From the NCBI GenBank assembly GCA_964408155.1, contig CAYOYJ010000001.1, forward strand, positions 1 to 59,734: a stretch of DNA of 59,734 nucleotides, read 5' to 3'. The notes under the pieces are model-generated. The model was not told where the DNA came from and made no database searches. It saw only the letters and a program-made list of their open reading frames with translations. Positions 31,903 through 53,960 of the stretch are shown piece after piece. How positions within the stretch are numbered: the first letter of the stretch is position 1; every line of letters begins with the position of its first letter. The stretch is from an uncultured Syntrophales bacterium (lineage in GTDB: Bacteria; Desulfobacterota; Syntrophia; Syntrophales; JAAYKM01). The translations under genes and the position numbers were made by a program.

Positions 31903-31953
31903 CAATGAAACGTCTGAAATGAGACTCAAAAGTTGGTAGGCAAAGGAGTGATA

Positions 31954-33560: not shown

Positions 33561-34343
33561 TTACATCACGCCAAGTATCCATCCCTCAACTTTGGCAAGC
33601 GTACGTTCTGCGGGGGTCAGCGACGGTGACAAGGATGTTGATATGCTGCCATCGAGATCAACTTGTCGCATCCATCTGGCCACTGAATAAGCGTCATGCT
33701 GGTCCTGATTGCGGTCTTCGCGGACAAAACCCCGGCTCCATAAGGATGGGTAAACCTCCACGATTACCGAACGACCTGGTGGGAGTTCCCAGCCATCGAA
33801 AGGCCAGAAGTGGATTTTATCAGTCAACTTCTGGCGAAGGTATCTCAACCAAGGTATTCCGGAATGCGTCGATTTGGCTACTTCACCCGGCACGTCAAAG
33901 TGAAAGACCGATTTGGCAGAACCAGCCCTTTCCTCTGTCAAGCGACGCCAACGGGTATTGCCCGTTCGGTCGGCGCCATTCCCTCTAAGACCATCCCGAA
34001 TGAAATCAACATAGACATTATCACCATCTGTCGGCCAGTGGCGCTGGAAATCATCGAGAAAGGTGGGCCAGTCAGGAAGCAGATGGTGAACCTCGAAATA
34101 ACGTAGGGGGAAAGAAAAGCCGTGATCAATACCGACAATGGTGGAATGATCTTCTTGTAGATGATCGACCAACCACTCGGCAATACCCCTTCTTGTCCAA
34201 TATTTTCGGGGGCTCGGCGGCGGTTGTACCTCTGTCGGCAGAGTGTCCAAATCAGCCGTATAAGCCCGCAGCCCTTTAAGGCTCGATATCGGCGTTTGGG
34301 CTCCCGAATAATCGATGCCGATATAACGGTGAAAAAATGACAT
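33561..34343 (-). CDS. hypothetical protein, possible RNase H-like fold (260 aa)
   Basis: YIGIDYSGA near the N-terminus, then VGIDHGFSFP, VIVEVYPSLW and QDQHDAYSVARW recall DUF429/RuvC-like nuclease layouts. Start M23 (34343) lies 13 nt after the upstream stop. This is the last gene of the BREX-like operon. Confidence 0.4.
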   Translation of the reverse strand: MSFFHRYIGIDYSGAQTPISSLKGLRAYTADLDTLPTEVQPPPSPRKYWTRRGIAEWLVDHLQEDHSTIVGIDHGFSFPLRYFEVHHLLPDWPTFLDDFQRHWPTDGDNVYVDFIRDGLRGNGADRTGNTRWRRLTEERAGSAKSVFHFDVPGEVAKSTHSGIPWLRYLRQKLTDKIHFWPFDGWELPPGRSVIVEVYPSLWSRGFVREDRNQDQHDAYSVARWMRQVDLDGSISTSLSPSLTPAERTLAKVEGWILGVM

Positions 34344-34356
34344 GCCTACGTCCTGA

Positions 34357-35583
34357 TCATTTATCGAATAAGCTTGGTTGAGCTTCCCTGGCAGCCTCAT
34401 ACTCCTCATAGAGTTTGAGGATAGGCATTCTCTTCTTCACCGTCTTGATAAATTCTGGATTATTCAGCGTTTCGTAAGTGACACCTTTGAAGATTAGCGA
34501 TACTTCTATTTTCTTGAGGTTCCTTTCGGCAGAGCCGAAATGGTCTGTAAGTTCACAATCCAATACCTGTCGAATATCAGCTGCGGACGGTTTTGAAGGT
34601 AAGAATTTTTTCCACCGCTCCGGGGTCTGTGCGATAACAGCCGGAGCAAGCGCATTGACTAGCGCCAAGCGATTATTGTCGATGGCCTTCTGAAGTTTCG
34701 CTTCGAGTTCCTTTTGAAAATCCTCGATGTGTTTTTTAAGTTCCTTTACCGCAGCTTCAAACTCCTCCTTTTTGCTCCTAAGAATGACATTCCCAAAGTT
34801 GGGCAGATTGACTAGAAAATCATCGGCAATCCTTTCCTTGTGTGCAGTAATCTCCTCCCCTGATATCTTGGTATCTTCATCATCAATCAACTGAAATGAG
34901 CTGTGCAGCAGCTTTTTGGTTTTGTCATCCTTTGCCAAGCCAAGCAGGTCGCTCGGTATATTGACCTTCCTTTTGCCGATTTGATGACCTCTTAACTCGA
35001 ATTCTACGAACTCAATTTGTGAATTGAAAACGCGCACCTTTCTGGCAATATCGAACTTCATTGGAGGATTGCGAATCAGATCGTTGGAAGTCTCCATTAT
35101 CTTTGTAGGACTTATGGGATTGGTTCCTACGGTGGCCCCACCTCCGGCCTTTTCAAGACCCATATCTTTGGCGATGTCAGTGGGCACCAAATTTAGTTTA
35201 ACGGCATTCGGGCGAACCGGAGTATCTGAACCACCTTCGATAAGCAATGGCGTTGGCGCATAGAATAGCGTTACATCATCTGCGATCAGCAGTGCAATCC
35301 TTACTCCGGGCTGTTCATGTATTGCACTTCCGAGCTTTCTGGCTTTTTCATTTAATTTTTTGAGGGCATCGATCGTTCCAAAGCCCATCCGACATACTTC
35401 AGGATCAACATCGAGTATGATGTTGATAGCTTCTGGTGGTAATTCGTCCCATTTCCTACAGACAGCCTCGGCTACTGGATCAGACATCCCGGGCGTCATA
35501 TAAACAAGACGTCTCTTGACGCTCTGGATAATTTGGCAAAGATAAGCATCGTCAACGGTAGTGATTGCAGTTGGTTCAGACAT
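34357..35583 (-). CDS. hypothetical protein (408 aa)
   Basis: Intact ORF 21 nt downstream of the 129-aa gene. The N-terminal ~120 aa have a PLD-repeat-like layout without HxK. The C-terminal half is helical and Lys/Glu-rich. Confidence 0.5.
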   Translation of the reverse strand: MSEPTAITTVDDAYLCQIIQSVKRRLVYMTPGMSDPVAEAVCRKWDELPPEAINIILDVDPEVCRMGFGTIDALKKLNEKARKLGSAIHEQPGVRIALLIADDVTLFYAPTPLLIEGGSDTPVRPNAVKLNLVPTDIAKDMGLEKAGGGATVGTNPISPTKIMETSNDLIRNPPMKFDIARKVRVFNSQIEFVEFELRGHQIGKRKVNIPSDLLGLAKDDKTKKLLHSSFQLIDDEDTKISGEEITAHKERIADDFLVNLPNFGNVILRSKKEEFEAAVKELKKHIEDFQKELEAKLQKAIDNNRLALVNALAPAVIAQTPERWKKFLPSKPSAADIRQVLDCELTDHFGSAERNLKKIEVSLIFKGVTYETLNNPEFIKTVKKRMPILKLYEEYEAAREAQPSLFDK

Positions 35584-35604
35584 CGGAGCCCTCCAATTTT
35601 TTTA

Positions 35605-35994
35605 CTAAATCCGGATGCACTTCTGGTCGCCATTCATGAAATATCTTACGCAGCCGGCAGCCTCTAAGATAGCTGCGACGTAGTTACCAATCGCACGGGG
35701 AAAATGGACAGCAGCGCGGGCAACTTCATCTACGCTGTCCTCCGTTGGGATAACCGCATGTTCAGCGGCAATTCGCAACAGACCTGACGGATTATTTCGA
35801 AAATAGGTGTCGACGGCATCAAACATTGCTCGCGGAAGACGATTTGGTGTCTGCGATTTTCCGATTTCGATATCTATGTGCGTTGGGGCGGCACCTGTGA
35901 CGATAAAAGGCCTTTGTCTGCTGGCGGGAATCCCTCTGCCGGGCGTCAGGAGTTGCTGACCGGGGCTTAAATTTGCCATGACCTTATTCCACAT
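35605..35994 (-). CDS. hypothetical protein (129 aa)
   Basis: ATG 35994 lies 6 nt after AGGAGG and 17 nt after the BrxL-like stop. The longer ORF-track start (36051) would overlap the BrxL-like gene. Confidence 0.5.
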   Translation of the reverse strand: MWNKVMANLSPGQQLLTPGRGIPASRQRPFIVTGAAPTHIDIEIGKSQTPNRLPRAMFDAVDTYFRNNPSGLLRIAAEHAVIPTEDSVDEVARAAVHFPRAIGNYVAAILEAAGCVRYFMNGDQKCIRI

Positions 35995-36011
35995 AAGCGC
36001 CTCCTTCTGTG

Positions 36012-38060
36012 TCAATCGGCCTTCAGATAGATAATTTCCGATTCCCGGCATTTTCTTTTCCGTTGGTCTATTTCACTGAGCTCATACTTTGATGCCGGTT
36101 TCTGAAAAATATCCAGCCCGCGACCCGGAATGATTCGCCATCCGTTATCCAAGGCGATGCTTCGATCATGAATGGTCGGATTAAACGCGTAACTGAATTC
36201 AATCCCATGTTTTGCAAGGCTATCCTTTATCTCTTCCAGCTTTTTTGCATTCGTCTGTTCCTGGAAAGAATTTTCGGCAGCCGTTGTTAGGATCAGTTTG
36301 ACCGGCCCGCCCGAGGTGTCAATGACGTTGGTAAAGATCAGAAAATTCCTGATTTGATATTCCATGCGAATATAAGGATCCGTAACATGGATAACGCGCG
36401 CTCCTTTCAGATATGATCCGAAAAGTCGTTGATAGCTTTGTCCCGTTTCACCATCTTGAATACGCACCGTTTTTTCGACAGGTGTTTCAACCCCATCTTT
36501 TTGAGGTTCCGTTATTTCAGTTTGGTGGGGAGCATCAGTCGCTGGCGACAATATGTCGTTCGGTATTGATACGCCTTTTTCCGGCTTTGAATTATCCGCA
36601 TAGGATGGTTTCCTATGATGACTTTGAAAATCATCGGGGAACTTCGAGAGTATTGTAAGCGGGATATATTCCCGATCCAATTTGCATAATTCATCTCTGA
36701 CCCGCTGCCGTAGCTCAATGGCGGGGTTTACGCAATACTGGAAAAAATCTGTGTCAGCCGGTTTCTTATCGGGAAAGAGTATTTTAAGCAGCCCCGTTGC
36801 TCCCGCCTCAATCGCTTTGCTGTCCCGCATATCGTCACAATTGGAAAGCTCCATGTTTGTTTTCACGTAATCGCGATAGCTGATGTCACCCCGTAGCGTA
36901 TGGAGAATTTCTCCGAAGATGTCGCCTTTCAGTCCCAGTGAGACGGATGGGGTTTTTTTGCTGATACGCGGTAGATCCCAGCCGGGCAGCAGTCCCGAGA
37001 ATCGGTCGATAAAAGCCGTCTCTCTTAAAAAATTGGGGAATATTCTAAACAGACCGATGTCCTCGTTTAAGGGTCTTCTGTTTTGGTCAAGGTCGATATT
37101 AGCCAATATGACGATCCCAGCTTCTGCGGTAATCGAACCGGCGCTGCCGCGTCCGAACCGGCCAGCTTCCAGGTAAGATTTCAAGAGGGCCGTCAATTCT
37201 CCTGAACTGTCCGCTTTAACTTTTTGTGCTTCGTCGATGACCACACAGTCATAGCGGGTAATCAAACCGGGCGTCTTTCGGGAATCGTTAAAGAAGAGAA
37301 CCGGTGCCGTGATCGCGCCGGAACGAACAGCCACATAGCGAGACATGTTTTCAAACACAAAGGATTTGCCTGTTCCTTTTGGGGCCAACTCCACCAGATT
37401 GTACCTTGGTTCGACTAAGGAAATAAGCCGAGATATCAGCAGAATCTTTTGCCGTTCGGAATATAGAAGATGGTTAAACCCCATCGAAGAAATGATCAGA
37501 TCGATCCATTCGGATGTCGTAAATGCACTCCGACACTCTGTGAAGTACGCAATATCCACGTTTGCCAACTGGAAAGGCCGAAATTCCCGTGCCCATATCG
37601 CGCCTTTTCCTTTCGTCTTCCCGTCGGACGGCGGCACATAAAAGAGAGATCCCAACCCCCATAAACCGCTGCTCAGCAGCATGTCATTTTCTTGGACAAT
37701 TTGTGGCGTGATGAAAGCGGAATCTTCATCCAAGAAGGGTATGCTTAAATAACGGTCTCCCTTCGCCAAATTTACATGTACTGAGAAATTATCGAGTATT
37801 TTAACTTCCTGCTGCTCATAGAGGTGGTTTTTGATGGTTTCCTTTTCGCTTTTATCCGGGACGTAGGTATGAACGAACTTAGCGATCTTTTGGCGAACCG
37901 CTTCGGTTAAATCGCTTTCACCGGCAATATAGTGCGAGATGATCCATTCCCTAACGTAGGTGGGTATGGCGCGGCTGCCAAAGCCCGCTTGATGGACAAA
38001 GGATTTATTGATGACAATTTCACCGAAGTTCTCCAGTGCTTTTTTCTCAAACGTGTCCAT
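36012..38060 (-). CDS. BrxL-like AAA+ ATPase with C-terminal MIT_C/PLD-like domain (no evident Lon protease domain)
   Basis: N-terminus FGEIVINKSFV...RAIPTYVREWIISHYI and the AAA+ core LVELAPKGTGKSFVF, CVVIDEAQ and ITAEAGIVILANI are BrxL-like. The C-terminus VTDPYIR...HGIEFSYAFNPTIHDRSIALDNGWRIIPGRGLDIFQKP resembles MITD1 MIT_C. Confidence 0.7.
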   Translation of the reverse strand: MDTFEKKALENFGEIVINKSFVHQAGFGSRAIPTYVREWIISHYIAGESDLTEAVRQKIAKFVHTYVPDKSEKETIKNHLYEQQEVKILDNFSVHVNLAKGDRYLSIPFLDEDSAFITPQIVQENDMLLSSGLWGLGSLFYVPPSDGKTKGKGAIWAREFRPFQLANVDIAYFTECRSAFTTSEWIDLIISSMGFNHLLYSERQKILLISRLISLVEPRYNLVELAPKGTGKSFVFENMSRYVAVRSGAITAPVLFFNDSRKTPGLITRYDCVVIDEAQKVKADSSGELTALLKSYLEAGRFGRGSAGSITAEAGIVILANIDLDQNRRPLNEDIGLFRIFPNFLRETAFIDRFSGLLPGWDLPRISKKTPSVSLGLKGDIFGEILHTLRGDISYRDYVKTNMELSNCDDMRDSKAIEAGATGLLKILFPDKKPADTDFFQYCVNPAIELRQRVRDELCKLDREYIPLTILSKFPDDFQSHHRKPSYADNSKPEKGVSIPNDILSPATDAPHQTEITEPQKDGVETPVEKTVRIQDGETGQSYQRLFGSYLKGARVIHVTDPYIRMEYQIRNFLIFTNVIDTSGGPVKLILTTAAENSFQEQTNAKKLEEIKDSLAKHGIEFSYAFNPTIHDRSIALDNGWRIIPGRGLDIFQKPASKYELSEIDQRKRKCRESEIIYLKAD

Positions 38061-38069
38061 AATGCTCTC

Positions 38070-40427
38070 CTACTCCAGATCATCGAAGGCGCTTTTGCCC
38101 TTTGTTTCGACCATGGCGCGCATTGTGATCGGCATCGTGACACTTTGCTCGTGCCGCTCATCATGACAGGTGAATCGAATGTGGAGGGTCAGGTTGTTTC
38201 TTTCATCAGCATTAGTCGTCTGTTTGAATTGGGCGGTCATTTCCACCAGGCCCTTATTTTTTCCGTTTAACAAGTCGATCGTTATCTGATCCGTTTCGAT
38301 ATTGGAATTGATGACCGATATACAGATATTTTCGATAGCAAACTCATTGGGATTGCCGATCTCCAGAGCAATCGTTTCCTTGCGATAGCGGAATTCTTTA
38401 GTTGCCAAGAGTAGTGTAAGATCCCGGAGAGGCGCTTTGGCCGCTTCAAAGATCAGATAGGGCACAACGACCTCTTCTGGAGATAACCCGCCGTGGGTAT
38501 AGGAATTGTCATCCGTCTTTGAAAAACGATTACCCCGTCTGGCACTCAGGTAATGGCTGGCATTTCCAAATTCTGTAGCATCCAAAAAGAAACAGTCCTC
38601 TTTCCAATTTTCCGGAAGACTGGAGAATCTCTCGTTTGAAACAGCGATATATCGAGGCGAGCGGATGGTGAATTCTGTGCTTTCAAATCCAGAAGGATCG
38701 AGGTCGTTGGCAATTTCCGCGGGAATTGTCGTGGAGCCGTGATCTGTGAGCACGTGAATCGCAATCTTTTTTTTCAGATCATGCTTATCAATGAATTCGG
38801 CAATCGTTTCTACGAAACCTTCGAGGAGGCTGCTGATGTACTTCAGATGCGGCATCCCGATCTGATCAGACGACATGTGTAGGGCTTTGTCTATAGCCAG
38901 GTAATTGACAACATAGGTATGCCCGGTTATTTTTCCGATATCAGACAGCTTGCCTGGATCGCTGATATACTGAAAAGTCGCGTCGTTGAAATAGGGGACC
39001 CAGCCCTTTTCTATGATGTTCTTGTATGTCTTGTTGTCTATGTCATTGTATGTAGGTGTGCCGGCGAGCAAACATTTTTTGGAAATTTCTGTTTCTGACG
39101 GCAACATCGATAGGTAAGGTTCTACTTTGGAGAGAAAGAAACCATGCATCTGGAAAAGGTCCTTGATAATCGGGACGAGCCCCCACCATAGATTGTCAAT
39201 GACGAGAACCAGATTGATGCTTTCATCCGATTTTAACCGGTCAGCGTTGTTCGGAAGGATGTTAAAAACCATCCTTTTGGAATTTGCGTGTATATCCTGC
39301 CATTTGCTATAGAGCCATTGAGAAAACTCGTCGGCAAGTTTATAGATTCCCTCATTCATCTTGTTGTTCGAAGCGCACCAGGTCTGATAGGGCAGATAGA
39401 ATTGCGTTGCCCATGTTATCATTTGGTCGAGATCCCAGGTTTTATCAGGCTGAGACGGAAGGGGTGGTTGGACAAGGCCTTTCAGCGCTTTAAGACGCCT
39501 CCCCACACGATCCTGAAGCGCTTCAAATTTCACATCCACGGCATTGATGATGTCTGCGGTAATCCAGTCAGGCTGACTCTTGAGAATCTTTTCCACCGTT
39601 TCAAATTCAGTGACCAGATAACCGCTCATATTGGAAATGAGGGCTTCCATTTCCGCCACATTCGCAGGTACCTGGTATGCATTCAGGATGTAAGTTATTT
39701 GGGTAACAATATCTTTTATGCCGGATTCGTCGATGCTCACTTTCGACAAATCAGGCTTCAGTGATTCAAGAATAGAAAAGTCATCTCCCATCAGTTTATG
39801 CCCCAGGGCTTTATAGGACCTGAGGACTTTGTATTTCATCAACTGATCTTTGAGGGCATCTACATCCGTAGAGAACAAGTCTATCAGCCGTCTGAGATCG
39901 GAACTTTTGGCCTTTGTTTTCCATTCGGCTAATCGCTTTGAATAGATTCCAGAAATAAGCGGATTCTTTGTGTTGGTATCCCACTTTGTGGAATCATAAG
40001 CCGCAAGAAGGACGCCCAATTTCGCAAATGGGAAGGTTTTCCCGGTAAAGAGAGGATGGTAAAAGTGATCCAGAATAACGTTGTCAAAGTGCGCCCCCTT
40101 GGGTGGGGATATATCCAACTCCAGCAAGCCGGCTGCGACGATCTCCTCATTGGATATCTCTTTTGGTATGGATATGCCCCAGATCTCTTCCAAACGACAG
40201 CGCGCGTCGATGCATTCGATTTTGACGCTTTCCTTGGGATAGCGACCGGACATGTGCACAAACCATTGCATAACCGTCGCATCGCGAACGTAGAGGGTTA
40301 TATCGCGGCCCTCAGCAAGAGCTTTCAGGATTTTAACGTAAGCTGATACGTATCCCGCTATGGATGAAACCACGTCATCCTCAGCGGTTGACACCAGTCC
40401 ATTCAAATCCTCAATCAGCCTAATCAT
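38070..40427 (-). CDS. pglZ: PglZ-domain alkaline-phosphatase-fold protein
   Basis: LVLVIDNLWWG, HVLTDHGST and YTHGGLSPEEVVVPYLIF are PglZ hallmarks. 785 aa. The start overlaps the brxC stop by 8 nt. Confidence 0.85.
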   Translation of the reverse strand: MIRLIEDLNGLVSTAEDDVVSSIAGYVSAYVKILKALAEGRDITLYVRDATVMQWFVHMSGRYPKESVKIECIDARCRLEEIWGISIPKEISNEEIVAAGLLELDISPPKGAHFDNVILDHFYHPLFTGKTFPFAKLGVLLAAYDSTKWDTNTKNPLISGIYSKRLAEWKTKAKSSDLRRLIDLFSTDVDALKDQLMKYKVLRSYKALGHKLMGDDFSILESLKPDLSKVSIDESGIKDIVTQITYILNAYQVPANVAEMEALISNMSGYLVTEFETVEKILKSQPDWITADIINAVDVKFEALQDRVGRRLKALKGLVQPPLPSQPDKTWDLDQMITWATQFYLPYQTWCASNNKMNEGIYKLADEFSQWLYSKWQDIHANSKRMVFNILPNNADRLKSDESINLVLVIDNLWWGLVPIIKDLFQMHGFFLSKVEPYLSMLPSETEISKKCLLAGTPTYNDIDNKTYKNIIEKGWVPYFNDATFQYISDPGKLSDIGKITGHTYVVNYLAIDKALHMSSDQIGMPHLKYISSLLEGFVETIAEFIDKHDLKKKIAIHVLTDHGSTTIPAEIANDLDPSGFESTEFTIRSPRYIAVSNERFSSLPENWKEDCFFLDATEFGNASHYLSARRGNRFSKTDDNSYTHGGLSPEEVVVPYLIFEAAKAPLRDLTLLLATKEFRYRKETIALEIGNPNEFAIENICISVINSNIETDQITIDLLNGKNKGLVEMTAQFKQTTNADERNNLTLHIRFTCHDERHEQSVTMPITMRAMVETKGKSAFDDLE

Positions 40428-43400
40428 GCGCGATCTCGCTCAATATCTTTGAAGTCATCTCTTCAAGCTCCGTAGTATCTACGGTGCCTGCCTCCGTGAG
40501 CTCTTCAAACAGCGACCTGACAGTGATTTTCGCTCCCTCTTTATCTTTCGGGAAGATGAAATTAATTACCTCATCCCCAAGGACACGCTGGCGTGCCCTT
40601 TTGATCTTGTACTTCTGCAATTCATCTATTGCCTGGATGGTTTCTATCTTTCCATAATTACCCTTGTCATCGACGACGACCAGTTTTAAGGTTCGGTTTC
40701 CCTTTACAGTTAAAATCTGGCCGGGTTTTAACTTTTGGCGTTCGCTCGCTTTATCTGTTGGATCCGCACCATTATCTGTAAAATAAATCGCGCCCTTTCC
40801 ATCTTCTGCAACACCAGTAATTTTCAATTCCCCTTTATAATAGACTTGGTTTCCTTTCTGACTTTCAGCGTTTTCATAAGTGACCTTGAGACGACCTATT
40901 TTGGGAGCATTTTTTTCAATATGCTCCTTCCCCCGTTTGATTTTGTTTATGTAGTCCGAAACCAAATCGGCGCTCCAGTTTGGCACCGCATTCAGACCAT
41001 AGGCATCAGGTAAAGCGCTGAACAGCGTGTCTCTGATATTGACCAGCTTATCCAGTTTAAGAATAAGCGGCTTGCTGTCATTGTTGTGGAAGGGGCTCAG
41101 CGCATCTTTCTGAATGCTGGTTAAACTATCTTTGAACCATGTCTTGATGGCTTCCTGAATATCAACATCCAAAACGCTGGGGCTTGCATAAATCTCGGCA
41201 ACCTGCTTCAGGATGTCATTCTGGACGGCTTCCAGAATTCCCTGCGCAGTGTCTTTGAAACTGGACAAGCGTGAGTCTATTTGGGCAAGCTTCTTGGCGG
41301 TGATCTTTTCACCGGGAATGATGTCAAGCAATTCCAGGAGGTCGTGTTTGATGAAATTAAAGGGATCTTTGGTCTTGGTTTGATTCAATGCCGTCACGAA
41401 GGGTTTGTCCTTGTCTTGATAAAAGTTCTCGGATCGGGCAATGATCGGCAGCCCTTGCCACCATTTGGTCACGGCCTGGAAGGCGTCGCCCAGGTTGTAT
41501 GTCTTCCCGGCCGGTACCGGATCAACACTGAAGATTTGAAAGACTTTGGTGAAATAGGCCTTATCCTCCTGACTGACGGGTTCAAAGAGGATGATGGCGG
41601 TTTTTTCCTGACCCGTAACCAGGTTGATGACTTGGTCCATGTCGGTAAACGGTAAGTCCGTCAGGGCATCCTTTTCCCTTTTAAAGCGTAAGCTGTCCCC
41701 ATAAAAACGTCTTGCCAGCAACACCATGAGGGTCATGGCAATTTCTCCCTGGCCATAGCTTTCATAGAAGGGTTGCAAAAAGGGCCAGCAAAGCGTTGCG
41801 CCTTTGCCTTGCAGTGCATCAAGATCCTCTAATAGCTTCACGAAGGCCGGCAGTTGGGTTTTGAATTTGTCAAAATTCTGTTCTGCCTCGTAATACCGGA
41901 TGTCGCCTTCCGTGTTCAGGAGGCGTAAGACCTGGTTATCCACAAAACATTTTCGCAGATAGCGCGTTCCCCCGCGATTGTCCGGCCATGCCCAGTTGAT
42001 CTGTATAGTCTGACTCAAATCCAGCAGAATTTTCCCGGCATCCTGCAAAATGCTGCGAACTTGACCGTCGATCTTCAAATGGGACCGGTTGAATTCCGTA
42101 TGCGAAAAAGTATTGCGCTTACTTGCGTACAATGACTCCATGAGTTTGCTGGAAACATCATGCTTTTTGGTGTCATTCACCGGGATATTGGCGCCACCGA
42201 TCCCAAACCACTCGACACGCGCATTGCTGAAATATGCACCCTTGGCATCTGCCAATAGCCCGTTGGCCGTCTTTCTTGATTCACTGATCTGGATATTTTC
42301 ATAAGGCCCAAAACTTTCGGCTTCTTTCGACTTTTGGATATGTTCAAGCGCCTTTAGCGTAAAGATGGGATCAAATACGGCTATTGGGGTGCGCGGAATC
42401 GCTAAGACAACCCTTTGCTGATCGTTTTTGACAATCGTCTTTTTGGCCTGCTCGATATCTTGATCGTTTTCGCAAAAGACATATAAGGCCGTCCCTTCAT
42501 AACCGCTCTTGCCATACCCCTCGTCGTTGCGCTGGCTCTCCAGCCATGCAAAGTAGGAAACATCCTTGCCGTTCAATGTGTGCTTTGAATCGATCATGGA
42601 TGGCGTTGCAAAAACCACGCGGAGCCGTTTATCCTCGTAATATGTACTGTTATAGTCTTTAGCTTCGAGATAAATTTCGTCGCTCTTGAGGGGATTGAGG
42701 GATAGAAAATGTTCAAGGATATTGGCTGGTCGATTATCGGGATTGGCTTTGTATTGTTCAATGAGGCGGTGGATATCTTTCCGCTCGCCGCGCATCAGTT
42801 CATAAATCCCCTGATTGTTATATAGGATACCTGCTTTGCAGAGCGTCTGAAGCCGGCTTTCCACCATGGTTTTTTCCGTCTCACTCACGGCATGCAAAGC
42901 AAATTGGATGTTCTGCATGGTGTTGGTGATGCGCAATTCATCCGTACTGATCATTTCATGGATAAGGATGACCTTGAGGATCCGCAGCATGAGGTCGTCT
43001 GTTTCCTCAAAAAGCTTCCCCTCGTCTTGCCTGGCGATGTATGTATTGAGCTCTCGCAGCGTGGCTTCATAGTTCACAACAGCCGTCTTGACTCGATCGA
43101 CAAGCTTGCGGTTATCGATCGACAAGCCGTCTTTGAAGTAATCCACCAGTATGTCTGCCGTGTATAGCACCAGGCGCTTCTCGCGCAGAATGTCATTGTG
43201 CTCGATAAACCATGGATAAGAATATTCCTGGACGTTCTTCCATCCCTCTTCCCCGGTCTCAAACTCGGGAGAGAAAAATTTGAATACCGAACGATTGTCA
43301 GATCCGGCTTCCAGTGCCAGCCGGAGCAGGGCGTAAATCGCCAGCGGATGCATCGGGTAGATATTCTCGATGATATTGTTTTTGACTTTGGGCGCCGGCA

Positions 43401-44547
43401 GCCAATTGAAAAGTCCCAGCCGTTTGCATTCGCCGGACAGGAAAGTGAAAGTACCTGCTTGCGGTACAACCTGCTTTAACCAAGCGTCTTCCTCTTTTTT
43501 CGGCTGTACGATTGCGGCGATAATATCTTCCATTCCCTGAGTCTGTAGCGGAATCTCTGTCACGCGCGCCTCAAGGGTGCTGTAGTGAACGGCGTCTCCC
43601 ACCTGGCCATGATTTCGAAAGGCTTTATGCCCCGTGCCGATAAAGATCAGGGGCAGGTGTTCCATACCGCTGTTTGCGCAGAACTGGGCGAAATTGTGCA
43701 ACCGGCTTAAGTTGACCAGGCCGTCGTCCAGGGCATAACCCAACTCATCGTATAAAATGACCAGCCCTTTGAATTTCTTCTTAAATGTCGAATTGGTTAA
43801 AATGTCTTTCAGGATATCCTGGAGATTGTCTTTCTTGAACGCAAAATCAGTATCCGTGACGACGGCAAAACAGGCTTTGAAAACCTTCAGCGCCTCTTCG
43901 TCGCGCTTTTTCAAACCGTCCTTCAGGTCATTGATCGTCCAACCGCTGTATCGTTTCGCCAGGGCAGCGCCCAGGTCGGAAAAGAACCTTTTATCGCTTT
44001 TCTGTTTTTCCCAGTCCTTGATGCGTCTCAATGCCTCTTGGTAATGGCTATCCAATTCGAAGTCCGCCTCTTCTTTCTGCAAGGCCTCTTCGATCGCGCG
44101 TAGCACTGCGCCCTCGAACTCCAGGTTCAAATCAAAACGGCAAATGGCCACCAGAAAACGGCCGGACTTGCGCGATGCCTTCAACGAAGATGCGGCGCGT
44201 TCTTTGAGGATTTCCCCAGGCTTTAAAAGGACCTGTTTTTGCGCCGTCTCGTAATTCTGAAAGAAGGTGGTCATTTCAGGCAGGTCGCTGGGGGAAGCGA
44301 AGTAATTCGCCAGCATCAAGAGCAGATGAGATTTGCCGGTTCCATAACTGCCGGACAGAAAATAGAAGCGGCGGTCTTTGGGATTCAATGAGCCGGCAAT
44401 TTTTTCAAATGCAAGGCGGTGAGCGGTAATCGGCTGATAGCGCTCCATCCGCACGCGGTTTTTCTCCAAGCTATAATACTCGTTCACCAAGTCCACGTAG
44501 CTTGTATAGCCGCTGTTGATTTGAATGATGTCGCGAATTTTACTCAT
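40420..44547 (-). CDS. brxC: BrxC/PglY-like P-loop NTPase (1375 aa)
   Basis: Walker A FLSGSYGTGKSHLLL about 70 aa from the N-terminus and Walker B LVILYDELGY. Giant size and a position immediately upstream of pglZ. Confidence 0.75.
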   Translation of the reverse strand: MSKIRDIIQINSGYTSYVDLVNEYYSLEKNRVRMERYQPITAHRLAFEKIAGSLNPKDRRFYFLSGSYGTGKSHLLLMLANYFASPSDLPEMTTFFQNYETAQKQVLLKPGEILKERAASSLKASRKSGRFLVAICRFDLNLEFEGAVLRAIEEALQKEEADFELDSHYQEALRRIKDWEKQKSDKRFFSDLGAALAKRYSGWTINDLKDGLKKRDEEALKVFKACFAVVTDTDFAFKKDNLQDILKDILTNSTFKKKFKGLVILYDELGYALDDGLVNLSRLHNFAQFCANSGMEHLPLIFIGTGHKAFRNHGQVGDAVHYSTLEARVTEIPLQTQGMEDIIAAIVQPKKEEDAWLKQVVPQAGTFTFLSGECKRLGLFNWLPAPKVKNNIIENIYPMHPLAIYALLRLALEAGSDNRSVFKFFSPEFETGEEGWKNVQEYSYPWFIEHNDILREKRLVLYTADILVDYFKDGLSIDNRKLVDRVKTAVVNYEATLRELNTYIARQDEGKLFEETDDLMLRILKVILIHEMISTDELRITNTMQNIQFALHAVSETEKTMVESRLQTLCKAGILYNNQGIYELMRGERKDIHRLIEQYKANPDNRPANILEHFLSLNPLKSDEIYLEAKDYNSTYYEDKRLRVVFATPSMIDSKHTLNGKDVSYFAWLESQRNDEGYGKSGYEGTALYVFCENDQDIEQAKKTIVKNDQQRVVLAIPRTPIAVFDPIFTLKALEHIQKSKEAESFGPYENIQISESRKTANGLLADAKGAYFSNARVEWFGIGGANIPVNDTKKHDVSSKLMESLYASKRNTFSHTEFNRSHLKIDGQVRSILQDAGKILLDLSQTIQINWAWPDNRGGTRYLRKCFVDNQVLRLLNTEGDIRYYEAEQNFDKFKTQLPAFVKLLEDLDALQGKGATLCWPFLQPFYESYGQGEIAMTLMVLLARRFYGDSLRFKREKDALTDLPFTDMDQVINLVTGQEKTAIILFEPVSQEDKAYFTKVFQIFSVDPVPAGKTYNLGDAFQAVTKWWQGLPIIARSENFYQDKDKPFVTALNQTKTKDPFNFIKHDLLELLDIIPGEKITAKKLAQIDSRLSSFKDTAQGILEAVQNDILKQVAEIYASPSVLDVDIQEAIKTWFKDSLTSIQKDALSPFHNNDSKPLILKLDKLVNIRDTLFSALPDAYGLNAVPNWSADLVSDYINKIKRGKEHIEKNAPKIGRLKVTYENAESQKGNQVYYKGELKITGVAEDGKGAIYFTDNGADPTDKASERQKLKPGQILTVKGNRTLKLVVVDDKGNYGKIETIQAIDELQKYKIKRARQRVLGDEVINFIFPKDKEGAKITVRSLFEELTEAGTVDTTELEEMTSKILSEIAHD

Positions 44548-44556
44548 GGCGTGCTC

Positions 44557-45036
44557 CTATACCAGTTCGTTAAACTCCTCTAACCGATGGACCCGACGAT
44601 CTCCGTGCGAATCGGTGATCTTCAGTGCTTCAATCTCATCCGAGGTTTGCAGACAAAAGATCAAAGTGGCGCCCATAGTTCCTATAAAAGAATTCCATTG
44701 CTTTTCGATCATGCGGAAAAAAGCCTGCCGTTCAGTTTTACGCCATGTATCCAGGAGAAAATCGGCGCGATCCACAATAAACAATTTTTCTCCTTTCGAT
44801 TTATCCTGCAGGAGGGCCTTGAACTGATCGGGATTGAAGCGATCCACTTCTGCGGACAACTCTGTATCGGCCTGGAAGTATCCGAGAACATCAAGATAGC
44901 CGCCTCCAATCTTTTCGTGGATCTGACTGGCAAATTGCCTCAAGGCGGTATCGGATTGCGGCCTTGCATGGATGATAATCGCTCGGAACTTTTCCTGTCC
45001 TAATTTTGTGAGACATTCTTTGATATTAAAGCCCAT
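44557..45036 (-). CDS. small BREX-associated protein of unknown family (159 aa)
   Basis: Sits 9 nt upstream of brxC, the position of BrxB/BrxF in known BREX types. Walker-B-like KLFIVDRAD is present but there is no intact Walker A. Confidence 0.5.
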   Translation of the reverse strand: MGFNIKECLTKLGQEKFRAIIIHARPQSDTALRQFASQIHEKIGGGYLDVLGYFQADTELSAEVDRFNPDQFKALLQDKSKGEKLFIVDRADFLLDTWRKTERQAFFRMIEKQWNSFIGTMGATLIFCLQTSDEIEALKITDSHGDRRVHRLEEFNELV

Positions 45037-45039
45037 TTT

Positions 45040-45852
45040 TCATTTCCCATAAAGCCGGTAAAGGACCTCGGTGAGTGCCAGCTCTTCAGAAAACCGCACC
45101 TGATCCAGATCGCCGAACTGCTCCCATCGCACCAATCCGCTGTCGTGCAATCGGTTTAGCAAGTCTCGAAACATATATTCCGGGAGATTCAGCACCGCAC
45201 CGGGGCTGTCCTTTCCCTTTTCAATCTCTTCGATGGGTAAGGCGCTTGCGGAAATGGCGTGCATTTCCCTGAAATGAAGCAACTGATATAGGAAAGCCAG
45301 TGGTGGAATGTCCACTGGCGTATCCCTATGATAGACACCCGTTTGCTCCTTGTGCAGCAGGTTAAGTCTGGACAGAGATGAATGAACGTAAGATTGGAGC
45401 ACGGCCCCAATCTCACCCGGCAACTTTGCCTTGAGCGTTCGTTCGGAGAAGGAAGATTTCAGGTCTGAAAAGTAAGGCAACGCCACGTCGGAAATGACGA
45501 TGCGATCATTGATGGGGAGGATCTGATTGACGATACGGTACCAGACTACCCATTCCGGATTGCTCGATATGATGTAATGAACAATCCACAGCGTCTCGAT
45601 GCGCTCAAAGTAAACGTCCTTTTCCGCGAGGATCTTTCCCAGAGGTGTAAGGATGGATGTCCGAGGCTTAAGCAAACCAAAGCCGACTGATACGCTGATG
45701 AGGCTTTCCACTTGTCGGTCCGAGAGGCCCAAGGTTGCCACTATTTCCTGCCGGGGAATTTTCTTGCGGCTTCCCGTCGTCAACAGATATTGCAGTATGC
45801 GGGAGATCTGGTCGAAACGGACGTGATAGCCGTTGGTTAATTGTAGTTTCAT
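45040..45852 (-). CDS. DUF4007-like protein (270 aa)
   Basis: N-terminal wHTH-like segment (IPRQEIVATLGLSDRQVESLISVSVGFGLL), FERIETLWIVHYIISS, SPGAVLNLPE and a terminal LYRLYG follow the DUF4007 pattern as I remember it. Ends 3 nt before the next gene. Confidence 0.55.
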   Translation of the reverse strand: MKLQLTNGYHVRFDQISRILQYLLTTGSRKKIPRQEIVATLGLSDRQVESLISVSVGFGLLKPRTSILTPLGKILAEKDVYFERIETLWIVHYIISSNPEWVVWYRIVNQILPINDRIVISDVALPYFSDLKSSFSERTLKAKLPGEIGAVLQSYVHSSLSRLNLLHKEQTGVYHRDTPVDIPPLAFLYQLLHFREMHAISASALPIEEIEKGKDSPGAVLNLPEYMFRDLLNRLHDSGLVRWEQFGDLDQVRFSEELALTEVLYRLYGK

Positions 45853-45895: not shown

Positions 45896-48800
45896 CTAAT
45901 TATGCTTTATTAATTCTCTTTCGTCTTCATCCAAGTTATACATATCAAATATCATTTTATTCATTTCACTTTCATATTCAGTAACGTTGCTCGACCTATC
46001 TTTTTGTTTTTCTAATAGTATTTTATCAATCAGTTTTATTAATATTTTCTTCTCTTGAGAGGATAATTTTTTCATCGGCAAGTTATTGATCATTTCTTTT
46101 GTGAAACTTATTCCTCCATTGTAACTTGCTGCAGAATATCTTTGCTTTATATAAAAAATATATATCTTCGAATTTAGTAGCGCTAAAAGACACTTTAAGT
46201 CATCGATTTGGTCGCTCGTTATTATCATCGTTGATTTACCTGGAATTATTGTCCCATCATCATCCAAACAAGCATCAAGTAACGTGAGTCCTTTGATAAT
46301 AATTTTTGGTTTTATGGATTTTTTTGAGTATGTATTTTTAAATAATTGGAAAAAATCGTCCTTTTCAACTACTGGAAAAAGATATTTATCCTTTAAATAT
46401 GTCATGCTTTTAAAACCCCATCTGGATACATATTTATCTATTGTGCCGGTGTTTATAATCTTCAAGTGTTTTTTATTGTTAAAATATGAATCACTTTCTA
46501 AATCATATATGATCTCTTTAAGCTTATATGCATCAGAGGTTGCACATGCATTTTCACAAAGGGGGAATAACTTACTTAGTGCGATTGAATCTTTTTCTAT
46601 TTTACTGATCAATCCTAATGAATCGGAAAATAGCACGTCCAGTGCATAAGGCGGTGCTAAAATACTTTTATTTACAGTTCGCTTAAAATCAATCTTTGCA
46701 TCCTTACTAGAGAATATAGTTATCTCATCAGTTTGTTTGTTTGTAAACTTAGTCACTATTGAGTCAACTTTTGAAGTTTCAAAAACGCCTCTTCCGACAT
46801 CAAATATGCTGTTAATGTTGCGAAATAGAATCCTTCGCAATTCATCTCCAAATGGTTTTGATATCCATTTATCAGGAGTAATAAAACTCAGCATGCCATT
46901 ATGAGATAACATTTTAAAACCAATCTCCATAAAAGCTATATAGATATCCCAGTTACCTTTCGTCGTTGCATATCTTTGAGATATAAAATCTCTTAAGTAA
47001 CCTAACCCAGATTGGACCATATTTTCGGAATCTAAATAAGGTGGATTACCAATAACAACATCAAATCCTAGATTTACGAAAAATGTCTCAGGGAATTCTA
47101 ATTCCCAATGAAAATATGAGGCCATATTTGGGAGGGGAATAATGGCTTCGCTGTCAACTAGCTCCTTATACTTCCATTCACTTATCTCGTTTCCGAAGTA
47201 GATGCTGGTATGCATGTCGCAAACCAGTTTGTAGGGCTTCAAAATGTCATCAATCTCGTCAAGCCAGGCTTTTTTATCGGCAATAACATCAAGCGTCGCG
47301 GAATCGGTGGATGTAATTCGGGTATAGTTCGAAATTGCCCTGCCCACAGCCTGCTTGAAATCCCTGTCATCGGAGAAGACGGAGTGTTGCTTTTTCTCTG
47401 CTTTGCCGGGATATTTGCCGATATCATCCAAACGTGCGCCAATCAGAGAATTGCCGGTCTTCAGTCTGTGATTAAGGAAGGATAGCGGCTTCTCTTTGGA
47501 CATGGAAAGAATCCAGAGAGAAAGTTTAGCCAGCTCGACGGCTAACGGGTTGACATCAACGCCGTAAACGCAGTTTTCCACGACCCAGCGCCGCCAATGC
47601 GTGGTCGAGGTATCGGTTGTTCCGATTATTGCGCATTCATTCAGAATCTCTGTAATGAAATTCGCTATGTAATTTGAGGTGTTCACCAGGAAGTGCCCGC
47701 TGCCCATCGCCGGATCGAGCACGCTGAGTTTCAGGGCTTTCTCTCTTATAAACGTCTTCAAATTGTCCTCTAACAATTCGGTTAGGGCTTTTCGCTCCTT
47801 TTGATCGATGGCCTTGCCTACAGCGCTCAAAAGGTCTTTCTGTTCCGCCAGAAAATTCTGCCGCAATTGTGAAAGCTTTTCTCCGACCGTGTTGCGCACG
47901 ATGTAATCGACGATGTATTCGGGCGTATAATATGAACCTGTCGCCTTTCGTTCACTGCGATCACTTCCGAAATAGACCTGTCCTGCCGGAATGTATCGTC
48001 CGGCGACGATCTTTCCGCCTAGTGACGCCGGAATGAATTGAATCTTGTCTTTTGCCGCACGAACCTCCGTATCTTCCTTGGTAATAAACAATTTATGCTC
48101 CAGCAATCCTTCATAGAGTGTGCCCAGGTGTCGCACGCTCATATCCCGATAGCTGATGGCTTTTTCCTCCCCTGATCGTTCCTGGTAGGATGTCAGGTAA
48201 TGAAGGGCGGAGGCCAGATGACTGTTGTTGACGCGCGACTCTTCGATGAACTGGGTAAATTCACTTTCATGGGGGTCAAACAGACCGCCGTTGTAGCTCT
48301 GGTCAATATCGACGAAGATGCGTTCCAGGTCCTCCCAAATGCTGTAGCCTGAAGCAGACGTATTATTTGCGGAAGATGCCTTGCTGCGCCGGAGAACATC
48401 TTTTAGCAAACTGCTGTTTGTTTCATTCAGCAGGCCGCGCGCGTCGGCATAAAAGAGAAAAAGCAACCGGAACATATAGAGCATGGCGCCGTGATAGATC
48501 TTCCGTCGCAGGTCGTCGTCATCGAAATTGGGAGATCCGCTTGACTTTAGGAATTCCACATATCCCATACACAGGTTGGAAAGAACGCCTTTGCCGCCTT
48601 CTTCCTTTTGCCTCAGGGCATTGGCCAGTTCGCTTTCAATATAATCAATCTTCGCCAGGGACTCTTTCTTGAACACGTCAAGGCGGCATTGCCCCAGTTC
48701 GCCGGTGGTGAAGTTCTCCACTTTCATAAACTTGTGGAAGATCTGATAAGCCTGCGATGCACTGTCCGATAGGATGGCGGCAAGATTCATTTCGAGGAAG

Positions 48801-49231
48801 ATTTCATAGGGCGTGGATTCGTCGAGATGGTACATTCTCCACTGTTCGCCGTTGGTCAATAGGCCCCATTTAAGATTGTGATGGCGCAGGCTGCGGATGA
48901 CCTTTTCAGCCCAATTTCGGCCCATCGTGGTGTTATCCAAATCTTCCGTGGGCAGCAACACGTAGCAAAGGGTGATCGGCGTCTCTGTATCTCCGACAGG
49001 ATAAAGCAGGGTCAGCCTTTCATTTTCTATTTTAATGTTGAAACGAAGGGCATACAGCACCTCATGGACAAATGACTCTTTCCACTCCTGGATGGTGGCG
49101 GTCCGGGCAAATTCTCGATATTCTTTTAACGTGATCAGTGATGCCAGGATTTCCGTGTCTTCAGGTTGCTGCGTGATTTCCTGGAGGTATATCTCGGAGA
49201 AGAGGTATTCGTTCCGGTAGTAGGTCGTCAT
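45896..49231 (-). CDS. pglX: PglX-type (type IIG-like) N6-adenine DNA methyltransferase
   Basis: GSYYTPEYIVDYIV, VLDPAMGSGHFLV (motif I), YGVDVNPLAVELAKLSLW, VVIGNPPY (motif IV) and a long C-terminal TaqI-like specificity region. 1111 aa. Confidence 0.85.
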   Translation of the reverse strand: MTTYYRNEYLFSEIYLQEITQQPEDTEILASLITLKEYREFARTATIQEWKESFVHEVLYALRFNIKIENERLTLLYPVGDTETPITLCYVLLPTEDLDNTTMGRNWAEKVIRSLRHHNLKWGLLTNGEQWRMYHLDESTPYEIFLEMNLAAILSDSASQAYQIFHKFMKVENFTTGELGQCRLDVFKKESLAKIDYIESELANALRQKEEGGKGVLSNLCMGYVEFLKSSGSPNFDDDDLRRKIYHGAMLYMFRLLFLFYADARGLLNETNSSLLKDVLRRSKASSANNTSASGYSIWEDLERIFVDIDQSYNGGLFDPHESEFTQFIEESRVNNSHLASALHYLTSYQERSGEEKAISYRDMSVRHLGTLYEGLLEHKLFITKEDTEVRAAKDKIQFIPASLGGKIVAGRYIPAGQVYFGSDRSERKATGSYYTPEYIVDYIVRNTVGEKLSQLRQNFLAEQKDLLSAVGKAIDQKERKALTELLEDNLKTFIREKALKLSVLDPAMGSGHFLVNTSNYIANFITEILNECAIIGTTDTSTTHWRRWVVENCVYGVDVNPLAVELAKLSLWILSMSKEKPLSFLNHRLKTGNSLIGARLDDIGKYPGKAEKKQHSVFSDDRDFKQAVGRAISNYTRITSTDSATLDVIADKKAWLDEIDDILKPYKLVCDMHTSIYFGNEISEWKYKELVDSEAIIPLPNMASYFHWELEFPETFFVNLGFDVVIGNPPYLDSENMVQSGLGYLRDFISQRYATTKGNWDIYIAFMEIGFKMLSHNGMLSFITPDKWISKPFGDELRRILFRNINSIFDVGRGVFETSKVDSIVTKFTNKQTDEITIFSSKDAKIDFKRTVNKSILAPPYALDVLFSDSLGLISKIEKDSIALSKLFPLCENACATSDAYKLKEIIYDLESDSYFNNKKHLKIINTGTIDKYVSRWGFKSMTYLKDKYLFPVVEKDDFFQLFKNTYSKKSIKPKIIIKGLTLLDACLDDDGTIIPGKSTMIITSDQIDDLKCLLALLNSKIYIFYIKQRYSAASYNGGISFTKEMINNLPMKKLSSQEKKILIKLIDKILLEKQKDRSSNVTEYESEMNKMIFDMYNLDEDERELIKHN

Positions 49232-49264: not shown

Positions 49265-50062
49265 TTAATTTACGTTCAGCTTATCGACGATTTCTTTTTT
49301 TATGAGGACATAGGCCTCCTGGACATCATATATCGCGTCTGCAGGCAGCAAGGGGTTCAGATCGCTGAGGAAGCCTCGATGCCTCAGTTTCTCCTGCAAA
49401 TTCTTTTCATAATGCATGCTGTCAACGGTTTGGCCTTCGGTCTCCATGTATTTTTTGAAGACATGGATTATTCTGCCGGCATCAGCTTTCCCTTCCGTGA
49501 CACCCAGCCACAAATCGAAAAGATCACGCCCTTTTCTCCTTTGATACAAGGCCCTCAGTTTCGTCGCGAGCAGTTCTTCCAGTGTATAGGTCGTGATCTC
49601 ACACCCACCTTTGAACCATCGGGACTCCACGCCAAACGGTTGTTTCTGATAGCCTTCCACCGCGAAATGTTCTCGCGTGTTGATTTCAACTTTCAGTCGT
49701 ATTTGCACGACCGGAGGCCCCTCCGATTCCATGCGATAGGTCAATATGACCGATTGCTCCGTTTGCTTGCGCCGCGGCGCTCCCAGAAAGCCGTTCAACA
49801 GCTCCTGGAGGGAATCAATGACCTGCCCGATCGGCGCGGGGATAATTTGCACCAGGTCAATGTCTTCCGAATAGCGCCGCGGAATATCGAAGTAGAGCTT
49901 GTGCAACGCTGTGCCGCCCCGAAAGGCCAACCGCTCCGCCAGCAAGGGGCTCTGAAAAATGGCGACAAGCGCCCTGCTGATGATCAGGTCCTGTTCCACC
50001 TGGGCATCGTTGACCCAGGGTGCAAACCGACGCCAAGCGACTATATCCGCCTTGGGAATCAC
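49265..50062 (-). CDS. abiEii: AbiEii/AbiGii-family nucleotidyltransferase toxin
   Basis: FRGGTALHKLYF...RYSEDIDLV is the DUF1814 NTase signature. A 4-nt overlap joins it to the upstream AbiEi-like gene. Confidence 0.85.
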   Translation of the reverse strand: MIPKADIVAWRRFAPWVNDAQVEQDLIISRALVAIFQSPLLAERLAFRGGTALHKLYFDIPRRYSEDIDLVQIIPAPIGQVIDSLQELLNGFLGAPRRKQTEQSVILTYRMESEGPPVVQIRLKVEINTREHFAVEGYQKQPFGVESRWFKGGCEITTYTLEELLATKLRALYQRRKGRDLFDLWLGVTEGKADAGRIIHVFKKYMETEGQTVDSMHYEKNLQEKLRHRGFLSDLNPLLPADAIYDVQEAYVLIKKEIVDKLNVN

Positions 50063-52723: not shown

Positions 52724-52769
52724 TCGGGGGCTGTCCGGGGGGTGAATCTCAATGAAAGGAGGATCGGTT

Positions 52770-53804: not shown

Positions 53805-53960
53805 GCTGTCTGGGGGTGAAGGGAGGTGATGCGATGGAGCTGAAGGAATCGGAAAGGGTCAAGAAGGACGAAGCGGGAAAGAGGATTCTATGTATCGGCA
53901 AAATTCACAAAGGCAGAAAAACCATGATTTTTGCCTTTCCACGGAAAGGAGGAAACGAAG

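Follow-up and report, generated by a model that had tools for sequence, protein, structure and literature searches.

In canonical BrxL of bacteriophage exclusion (BREX) systems, the C-terminal Lon-like domain lacks the Ser-Lys dyad and joins rings in tail-to-tail pairs (Shen et al., 2023). A MIT_C domain, with a conserved acidic residue and an HDR motif, was described at many BrxL C-termini by Li et al. (NAR 2025, PMC12065111), who hypothesised that BrxL and MITD1 are both enzymes. A survey by Rakesh and Krishnan (NAR 2026, PMC12839542) recorded replacement of the Lon-like domain by an 'HKD-endoDNase' with an HRD motif in 1030 of the 2913 Type-1 BREX taxa with BrxL, proposed this HKD/HRD tail as an extra nuclease effector, and described it as specific to Type-1, the Type-4 BrxL being tailless. 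The present analysis concerns a gene of this kind in a stretch of DNA from an uncultured Syntrophales bacterium (contig CAYOYJ010000001.1), which is 59,734 nucleotides long and is referred to as the window. The gene, an intact open reading frame of 682 codons on the minus strand (36012..38060), encodes a BrxL-family AAA+ protein in which the Lon-like C-terminal domain is replaced by a MITD1-type domain of the phospholipase D (PLD) fold, and is the last of a co-directional six-gene operon encoding a PglX-like methyltransferase, a DUF4007 protein, a conserved 159-residue protein (p159), an SspC-like ATPase, a divergent PglZ and BrxL-MIT_C.

The protein belongs to the published 'BrxL-HKD/HRD' (BrxL-MIT_C) class, with which it shares the N-domains, the AAA+ domain, the C-terminal MIT_C/PLD domain with its H-x-R motif and the proposed role of an added nuclease (PMC12065111, PMC12839542). 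The fusion is already described and catalogued and is not new. PADLOC v2 (2023) already holds a 698-position BrxL model, PDLC02508, that covers the protein end to end (residues 1-681 on model positions 1-695, E 1.8e-133), and among the matches listed PF16565 and the BrxL domains occurred together in 120 of 120 homologue clusters (67-100% identity), for which the NCBI name was BrxL. Where the window differs from the published, Type-1-specific variants is in its core, which is of the TIGR02688 type (433 bits as against 242 bits for TIGR02653), and in its partners, among which are DUF4007, an SspC-like ATPase and a PglZ scoring below the cutoff of each BREX subtype model.

Domain structure of the BrxL-MIT_C protein

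The N-terminal two thirds of the protein were assigned by profile searches and by alignment with PDB sequences. The DNA-binding N-domain (BrxL_N, PF20442, E 8.5e-27) encompasses residues 11-141 (37638..38030, on the minus strand like all features of this gene) and aligns with the N-domain of 8EMC, and the AAA+ ATPase domain (PF13337, E 3e-95) encompasses residues 158-465 (36666..37589). A phmmer search of the PDB aligned residues 10-462 with Acinetobacter BrxL (PDB ID: 8EMC) at an E-value of 2.7e-52. The Walker A motif APKGTGKS (residues 226-233, 37362..37385), read from the sequence, is invariant in the homologue alignment, and the Walker B motif VVIDE (residues 273-277, 37230..37244) was located by alignment to 8EMC/8EMH; its D276 and E277 are invariant, and E277 pairs with E280 of Acinetobacter BrxL, the residue used as a Walker-B trap. 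The NCBIfam BrxL equivalog TIGR02688 scored 432.9 bits, above its curated cutoff of 329.3, and the gene has PglZ as its neighbour, the operon also encoding a BrxC-like ATPase and a PglX-like methyltransferase, in agreement with BrxL membership. The homologous N-domain and AAA+ core with both Walker motifs are thus shared with Acinetobacter BrxL (8EMC/8EMH; Shen et al., 2023), and a DNA-encircling ring is presumed here too; in place of the catalytically inert Lon-like fold that pairs the Acinetobacter rings, however, the window protein has a linker and MIT_C. The linker (residues 466-539, about 70 residues, 36444..36665) has no Pfam match, differs in length and sequence among homologues and is probably disordered. 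An AlphaFold2 (AF2) model of the full length, for which 34 homologues with 68-95% identity were used, was poor overall (mean predicted local distance difference test (pLDDT) 52, predicted template modelling score (pTM) 0.38) and was used only for the linker, in which residues 489-524 had a pLDDT of 26-32 while the flanking blocks were modelled better.

The C-terminal segment to which the sequence-only reading had drawn attention, 36012..36480, comprises residues 527-682 and the stop codon (the last 156 codons), and the MIT_C domain itself was delineated as residues 540-679 (36024..36443). It matches PF16565 over model positions 1-141 of 142 (E 2.8e-42, 144.4 bits against a gathering cutoff of 25), and a phmmer search of the PDB aligned residues 527-676 with human MITD1 (PDB ID: 2YMB) at an E-value of 5e-26, an alignment that reproduced the MITD1 strings given in the earlier reading (DPYIRH..., HGV...). 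Matches of this strength are far beyond what chance would produce. A separate AF2 model of residues 520-682 was obtained with a pLDDT of 93.2 and a pTM of 0.87, and when it was submitted to Foldseek the best neighbours were the MITD1 chains of 2YMB and 4A5Z (TM 0.84-0.91, root-mean-square deviation 1.7-2.1 Å, 34% identity). These were followed by phosphatidylserine synthase, PLD1, PLD3, the NgoAVII R-protein and Tdp1, at a probability of at least 0.95 and low TM values (0.4-0.5), and FAM83 DUF1669, a PLD-fold pseudo-enzyme, was also among the matches; the Foldseek results place the tail in the PLD fold.

The domain contains two conserved motifs. The first, DPYIR (residues 561-565, 36366..36380), was traced in the homologue alignment and in the cross-lineage alignment with human MITD1, D561 and P562 being invariant in the latter; Li et al. 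(NAR 2025, PMC12065111) refer to its aspartate as the 'conserved D/E after beta2'. The second, HxR(x)4D-N-G-W (HDRSIALDNGW, residues 631-641, 36138..36170), is the counterpart of the PLD motif HxK(x)4D and departs from its classical form in that arginine invariably stands for lysine (H631-D-R633-(x)4-D638), the histidine and aspartate being kept; H631, R633, G640 and W641 are invariant and the middle residue is D, R or K. Across 25 homologues at 34-84% identity, H631, R633, N639, G640, W641, R647, G648 and K654 were invariant and D561, P562, R565, D638 and D650 nearly so. When eight BrxL MIT_C domains from two core lineages were aligned together with human MITD1, the invariant positions were D561, P562, H631, R633, G640, W641, R647, G648, L649 and D650. 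The window domain is as similar to that of human MITD1 (35% identity) as to the MIT_C domains of BrxLs with a canonical core (32-42%). Human MITD1 (2YMB, 4A5Z) accordingly shares the fold and the D-P-Y, H-x-R, G-W and R-G-L-D elements with the window domain, but differs in having an N-terminal MIT domain that binds ESCRT-III and a role in cytokinesis; it lacks an AAA+ motor and is not known to have enzymatic activity.

With the MIT_C domain by itself as query, 35 candidate homologues were retrieved, most of them fragments of genes, and no other architectures came to light. Two apparent standalone MIT_C proteins (P0310 and P0292) were rejected as such, since each directly follows a truncated BrxL gene and is therefore one half of a split or frameshifted fusion. 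In two further loci (L026:6464-8570 and L027:6427-8498), BrxL and MIT_C were called as separate genes, with a 50-nucleotide overlap in the former and a gap of about 100 nucleotides in the latter; these could be split genes, frameshifts, or cases of a tail acting in trans.

The profile searches in Pfam and NCBIfam gave no Lon_C or other Lon family match anywhere in the protein. TIGR02653, the Lon-related model for the canonical Type-1 form of BrxL, aligned only on positions 5-455 of 675 and scored 241.8 bits against a cutoff of 628.25, and the alignment to 8EMC ended at residue 462, before the tail. The sequence-only reading had named a BrxL N-domain and AAA+ core followed by a MIT_C tail with a PLD fold and without a Lon domain, and the profile searches, the sequence alignments and the predicted structure with its Foldseek comparison together bore this out; the strings quoted in it were also all found in the protein, at residues 228-234 (KGTGKSF), 273-279 (VVIDEAQ), 554-576 (ARVIHVTDPYIRMEYQIRNFLIF) and 615-655 (LAKHGIEF...GRGLDIFQKP). 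Its notion that a protease had been exchanged for a PLD-fold module stands only in part: a PLD-fold module does occupy the place of the Lon-like domain, but the canonical domain has no Ser-Lys dyad and serves to pair rings (Shen et al., 2023). The change in effector chemistry that was drawn from this notion had already been proposed in print by Li et al. 2025 and Rakesh and Krishnan 2026, and while Lon_C is absent from the window protein, the tail is common elsewhere, as seen from its occurrence in 1030 of 2913 Type-1 BREX taxa with BrxL (PMC12839542).

Core lineages and the range of BrxL tails

A set of 1.8 billion representatives was searched with the BrxL N-domain and ATPase only, yielding 1511 matches (representatives at 50% identity), and the counts of tails and MIT_C domains were taken from the best 150 of these 1511, so that they are not an estimate of frequency across all BrxL. 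Most of the 150 were short (about 470 residues) and eight carried MIT_C. The other tails and fusions were Lon-like, Schlafen/AlbA_2, NYN, DUF4145, winged-helix, Ser/Thr-kinase, subtilase, PAPS (3'-phosphoadenosine-5'-phosphosulfate)-reductase and HSDR_N+TPR, and the range of BrxL fusions is therefore much wider than the trichotomy of Lon, HKD or none in the 2026 survey (PMC12839542). The fused representatives were P0149, P0159, P0190, P0208, P0152, P0141, P0196 and P0164, among which a Ser/Thr kinase at the N- or C-terminus, a subtilase S8, an NYN-containing tail of about 440 residues and a winged helix-turn-helix were seen. A BLAST cluster of C-terminal tails (cluster 'A') was dropped as a count of Lon tails because it mixes Lon-like with Schlafen/AlbA_2 tails.

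The cores bearing MIT_C fall into two lineages. Those of the window clade (P0137, P0140 and P0144) score about 430 bits on TIGR02688 and about 250 bits on TIGR02653, whereas TIGR02653 gives the higher score (485-551 bits) for P0229, P0252 and P0273, which are placed among the Lon-type BrxLs and form a separate lineage with an ordinary PglZ. The core tree was a rough neighbour-joining tree without support values and was relied on only where NCBIfam scores and the type of partner gene agreed with it; P0254 grouped with P0229, P0252 and P0273 on this tree, yet had equal scores on the two models. The partner genes follow the same division: the canonical-core loci L026 and L029 encode a PglZ that matches the Pfam model strongly, and nothing in them is detectably similar to the window PglZ or ATPase, and the window-clade loci L027, L028, L031 and L033 have a PglZ of the window type, two of them with a window-type ATPase as well. 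Two MIT_C core lineages were accepted because the NCBIfam scores and the partner genes agree with the split in the tree.

Within the window clade the tail itself varies. In a Chloroflexia metagenome-assembled genome (MAG) (L020:12367-14484, CAWIOV010000002.1) the six-gene system encodes a BrxL whose core is 77% identical to that of the window and whose tail is Schlafen/AlbA_2, which is a like-for-like swap of the tail in an orthologous operon. The C-terminal 198 residues of P0135 (76% core identity) contain an R-N-C-I-R-H (Rx4H) motif, seen by eye and without profile support, and this tail may be HEPN-like. In L033 (L033:38-13071, Logan DRR463595_5307), a BrxL-MIT_C with 41% core identity, a window-type PglZ and an SspC-like ATPase adjoin a bona fide SspB/SspC/SspD module and three unknown genes, a hint that the fusion reaches beyond methylation-type BREX; since the contig breaks off upstream, BrxL-MIT_C and SspBCD could be separate systems that happen to be adjacent.

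The sequence-only reading had called for the C-terminal domains of type 1 and type 4 loci to be compared. According to the literature the tail is Type-1-specific (PMC12839542); here at least two core lineages of BrxL carried it, and that of the window has Type-4/Ssp-like partners. The statement of the survey may not cover the lineage of the window; Pelolinea, Leptolinea, Levilinea and Smithella were sought in its supplements (PMC12839542) and were not found. It is tentatively proposed that the BrxL C-terminus is an exchangeable effector slot, filled by MIT_C, Schlafen/AlbA_2, an Rx4H tail or nothing, that a module of ATPase, PglZ and BrxL(MIT_C) pairs with either a methyltransferase or SspBCD, and that MIT_C was acquired independently by two BrxL lineages and is not Type-1-specific, a proposal that could well prove mistaken.

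Possible roles of the MIT_C domain

The domain identities, the fold, the invariant polar pocket, the conservation of the operon and the modularity of the tail are direct results of the analysis, and the mechanism is inferred from them. The likeliest role of MIT_C is probably that of a nuclease tethered to the BrxL motor, because the pocket residues are invariant and because, as Druantia DruE shows, MITD1-like HxR PLD domains can act as a motor-coupled nuclease. According to this model, BrxL would assemble as an ATP-dependent ring on unmodified invading DNA, as in 8EMH. Since PLD active centres need two half-sites, two MIT_C domains would have to come together, whether from adjacent subunits or from two rings that meet at their tails in the manner of the canonical Lon-like domains, and would thereby form a composite phosphodiesterase site with H631 as nucleophile or acid together with R633, D561, R647 and D650. 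Such a site could nick or degrade the DNA handled by the motor, adding a nuclease arm alongside PglZ. The pairing finds a parallel in canonical BrxL, in which the C-terminal domain mediates tail-to-tail dimerisation of the rings (Shen et al., 2023), and the idea of an effector slot is supported by the Schlafen/AlbA_2 (L020), NYN, DUF4145 or Rx4H tails held at the same position by other BrxL cores.

DruE offers the closest functional precedent (bioRxiv 10.64898/2026.05.13.724313). It is like the window protein in carrying the MITD1-like PLD fold on an ATP-driven DNA motor in a defence system, with a pocket containing Asp, His and H-x-R (including D1740, H1830, D1917, R1918 and H1999-x-R2001), and its D1740A mutation abolished both ATP-dependent degradation of single-stranded DNA and phage defence. 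It differs in that a superfamily 2 (SF2) helicase bears two PLD domains in tandem in one chain; in BrxL, each subunit of an AAA+ ring carries a single one. Direct sequence similarity to DruE was not detected, a PADLOC search with the full protein giving BrxL models only.

Several points nevertheless weigh against catalysis. No experimental test of the BrxL MIT_C tail was found in the literature, in which enzymatic activity has been shown for no BrxL MIT_C domain and not for MITD1 either, and since MITD1 too has these 'catalytic' residues unchanged, their conservation alone is no proof of catalysis. MITD1 is, moreover, reportedly a membrane-binding protein, to go by the title alone of the report by Hadders and colleagues of 2012. 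The lysine of the PLD motif is replaced by arginine in the tail, and lysine-to-arginine changes inactivate classical PLD enzymes. In canonical BrxL bound to DNA, the C-terminal domains are remote from the DNA that the pore encloses (Shen et al., 2023), and R2001A in DruE led to only a partial, intermediate loss of defence (bioRxiv 10.64898/2026.05.13.724313).

The alternative that best survives these considerations, although it is rather unlikely, is that MIT_C is a non-catalytic dimerisation or regulatory module which pairs two rings tail to tail or tunes the ATPase, its HxR pocket binding a phosphate ligand or the DNA backbone without cleaving it. The MIT_C domain of MITD1 works as a dimer (as in its Pfam description), PLD-fold pseudo-enzymes such as the FAM83 DUF1669 domain returned by Foldseek exist, and the replacement of lysine by arginine in the motif would also fit such a module. 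The inert C-terminal domain of canonical BrxL likewise pairs rings, and its Q661W mutant alters ATPase activity (Shen et al., 2023). On the other hand, D561, H631, R633, R647 and D650 are strictly invariant across very divergent lineages, the homologous MITD1-like domains of DruE are needed for its nuclease activity (bioRxiv 10.64898/2026.05.13.724313), and the tail slot otherwise holds nuclease-type modules. Many BrxLs of the same clade are, in addition, tailless, so that ring function needs no tail.

It is quite improbable that MIT_C serves as a membrane or phospholipid-binding anchor of the kind reported for MITD1, which would keep BrxL at the inner membrane, the site of phage DNA entry. 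The 35% identity to the MITD1 domain, the common fold and the membrane-binding PLD fold reported in the title of the MITD1 paper would fit such a role, but none of the partners in the operon is transmembrane or lipid-related, the comparable tails are enzymes acting on nucleic acids and the MITD1-like domains of DruE act on DNA (bioRxiv 10.64898/2026.05.13.724313).

A divergent Lon-protease-like domain, finally, was rejected as exceedingly improbable, its only source being two database names, 'Lon protease-like protein BrxL' and 'ATP-dependent Lon protease', whereas Pfam, the phmmer search of the PDB and Foldseek all point to MIT_C (E 2.8e-42, TM of about 0.9 to MITD1), no Lon_C or Lon match exists in Pfam or NCBIfam and the alignments to TIGR02653 and 8EMC end near residue 460. 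A genuine Lon-type BrxL, the 680-residue P0194, does match lon models over residues 490-676, unlike the window protein. The tail of P0194 keeps a PKEGPSAG Ser motif and a GG..EK Lys, and some BrxL Lon domains may therefore retain the catalytic dyad, unlike the 'inactive LonP' of the general description.

The operon, its relatives and its surroundings

The five genes upstream of BrxL-MIT_C all lie on the minus strand. The gene immediately preceding it encodes a very divergent PglZ-domain protein of 785 residues (38070..40427), which reached only 18.9 bits on Pfam PglZ and is syntenic in 18 genomes; its best scores on the NCBIfam BREX PglZ models, 31 bits for type 3 and 29 bits for type 4, are far under the cutoffs, and its profile matched PorX (1e-5), PglZ 9ZN5 (0.043) and nothing else in the PDB. 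Next stands a large P-loop ATPase of 1375 residues (40420..44547), likewise syntenic, which is SspC/BrxC-like with PADLOC favouring SspC (1.4e-17) over BrxC (1.2e-5) and with 19.5 bits on NCBIfam BrxC against a cutoff of 400. The gene for p159 (44557..45036) occupies the position of BrxB and is found beside DUF4007 in all complete loci; p159 had no match in Pfam, PADLOC, NCBIfam or a profile search of the PDB, and thus no match to BrxB. The DUF4007 protein (45040..45852; PF13182 1e-19, PADLOC SspB 5e-15) is SspB-like and resembles the DNA-binding module BrxA, in line with the 2026 survey, in which DUF4007 is BrxA-like (PMC12839542), and with the literature equating DUF4007 with the BrxA-like triad. 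The first gene encodes a PglX-like N6-adenine methyltransferase of the Eco57I/MmeI type with 1111 residues (45896..49231; PF07669 1.7e-35, MmeI_Mtase, TaqI_C), for which the best NCBIfam match, BREX-1 PglX, reaches 119 bits (cutoff 500).

None of the partner proteins reaches any NCBIfam BREX subtype cutoff. The gene set falls short of BREX type 1, with 17 bits on PglZ_1_B (cutoff 400), 119 on PglX_1 (500) and 19.5 on BrxC (400) and with DUF4007 in the place of BrxA. With BREX type 4 and the Ssp phosphorothioation systems it shares DUF4007 (SspB-like), the large SspC-like ATPase, PglZ and BrxL, and the L033 locus, with BrxL-MIT_C directly beside a bona fide SspBCD module, is a related case. The operon differs from these systems, however, in having a PglX-like methyltransferase and no PAPS reductase (BrxP/SspD), and its BrxL carries the MIT_C tail, while the Type-4 BrxL is reported to be tailless (PMC12839542). 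An arrangement of this kind, a methyltransferase with Type-4/Ssp-like parts, is not explicitly described in the survey (PMC12839542). The window might thus represent a methyltransferase-based BREX lineage with Type-4/Ssp-like parts and an exchangeable BrxL tail, although its standing as a separate, undescribed subtype is doubtful.

A scan of species-representative genomes with a PglZ alignment yielded 18 loci, from a Syntrophaceae MAG (89% identity), many Anaerolineae, which included the cultured Pelolinea submarina, Leptolinea tardivitalis and Levilinea saccharolytica, and one Clostridiales MAG; the closest named relatives of the BrxL-MIT_C protein itself are Smithella and Smithellaceae MAGs. 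DUF4007, p159, the ATPase, the methyltransferase and PglZ were present in all 11 loci that reach far enough upstream, those of the cultured Pelolinea, Leptolinea and Levilinea among them, and BrxL in 10 of these 11, the remaining locus (L024) ending inside PglZ. In Pelolinea submarina MO-CFX1 the locus lies at about 2.862-2.884 Mb of NZ_AP018437.1. The gene order in the relatives mirrors that of BREX-1 (A-B-C-X-Z-L). A comparison of the window with L009-L025 showed that the methyltransferase gene separates the ATPase gene from that for PglZ in Anaerolineae and has moved to the front in the window and in the Clostridiales locus L022.

Further genes flank the operon. An AbiEi/AbiEii toxin-antitoxin (abortive infection) pair (49265-50874, minus strand) stands immediately upstream of the methyltransferase gene. 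Downstream of BrxL are three genes on the minus strand (33561-36051, encoding about 129-148, 408 and 260-282 residues), which had no family match except for the 282-residue protein (25.8 bits on NCBIfam against a cutoff of 596); their conservation is limited to the close Syntrophaceae locus L008, and in the Anaerolineae loci DUF4268 proteins are found at that place. Convergent on the operon are genes for a 945-residue DEAD/ResIII helicase with archaeal helicase domain 4 and then a 494-residue DUF8370/DUF8371 protein (29065-33417, plus strand), a pair that accompanies the operon in identical contigs and may form a further defence module. An IS91-family Y2 transposase (14232-15578, minus strand), a Mu/rve-type transposase (19609-21075, minus strand) and a Peptidase_M78 (IrrE-like) gene (22650-23516, plus strand) were also identified. 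The GC content is 0.38-0.52 across 12-50 kb and 0.58-0.64 in the flanks, consistent with the 12-50 kb region being a mobile or defence island. Beyond it, genes for a PD-(D/E)XK nuclease, an AAA_24 ATPase and an AAA_23/SMC-like ATPase follow one another on the plus strand (52752-57330) and resemble a phage-type recombination module.

The window contributes only a well-conserved example of a published fusion, and the comparison of its relatives suggests that the MIT_C tail occurs beyond canonical Type-1 BREX and is exchanged in the manner of a cassette. The tail also bears on whether MITD1 of eukaryotes is an enzyme, a link that has likewise already been argued in print. A BrxL with a probable nuclease tail would provide a concrete, mutable handle (H631, R633 and D561) on the restriction step, an argument that is also already in print, and relatives occur in the cultivable Anaerolineae Pelolinea submarina, Leptolinea tardivitalis and Levilinea saccharolytica.

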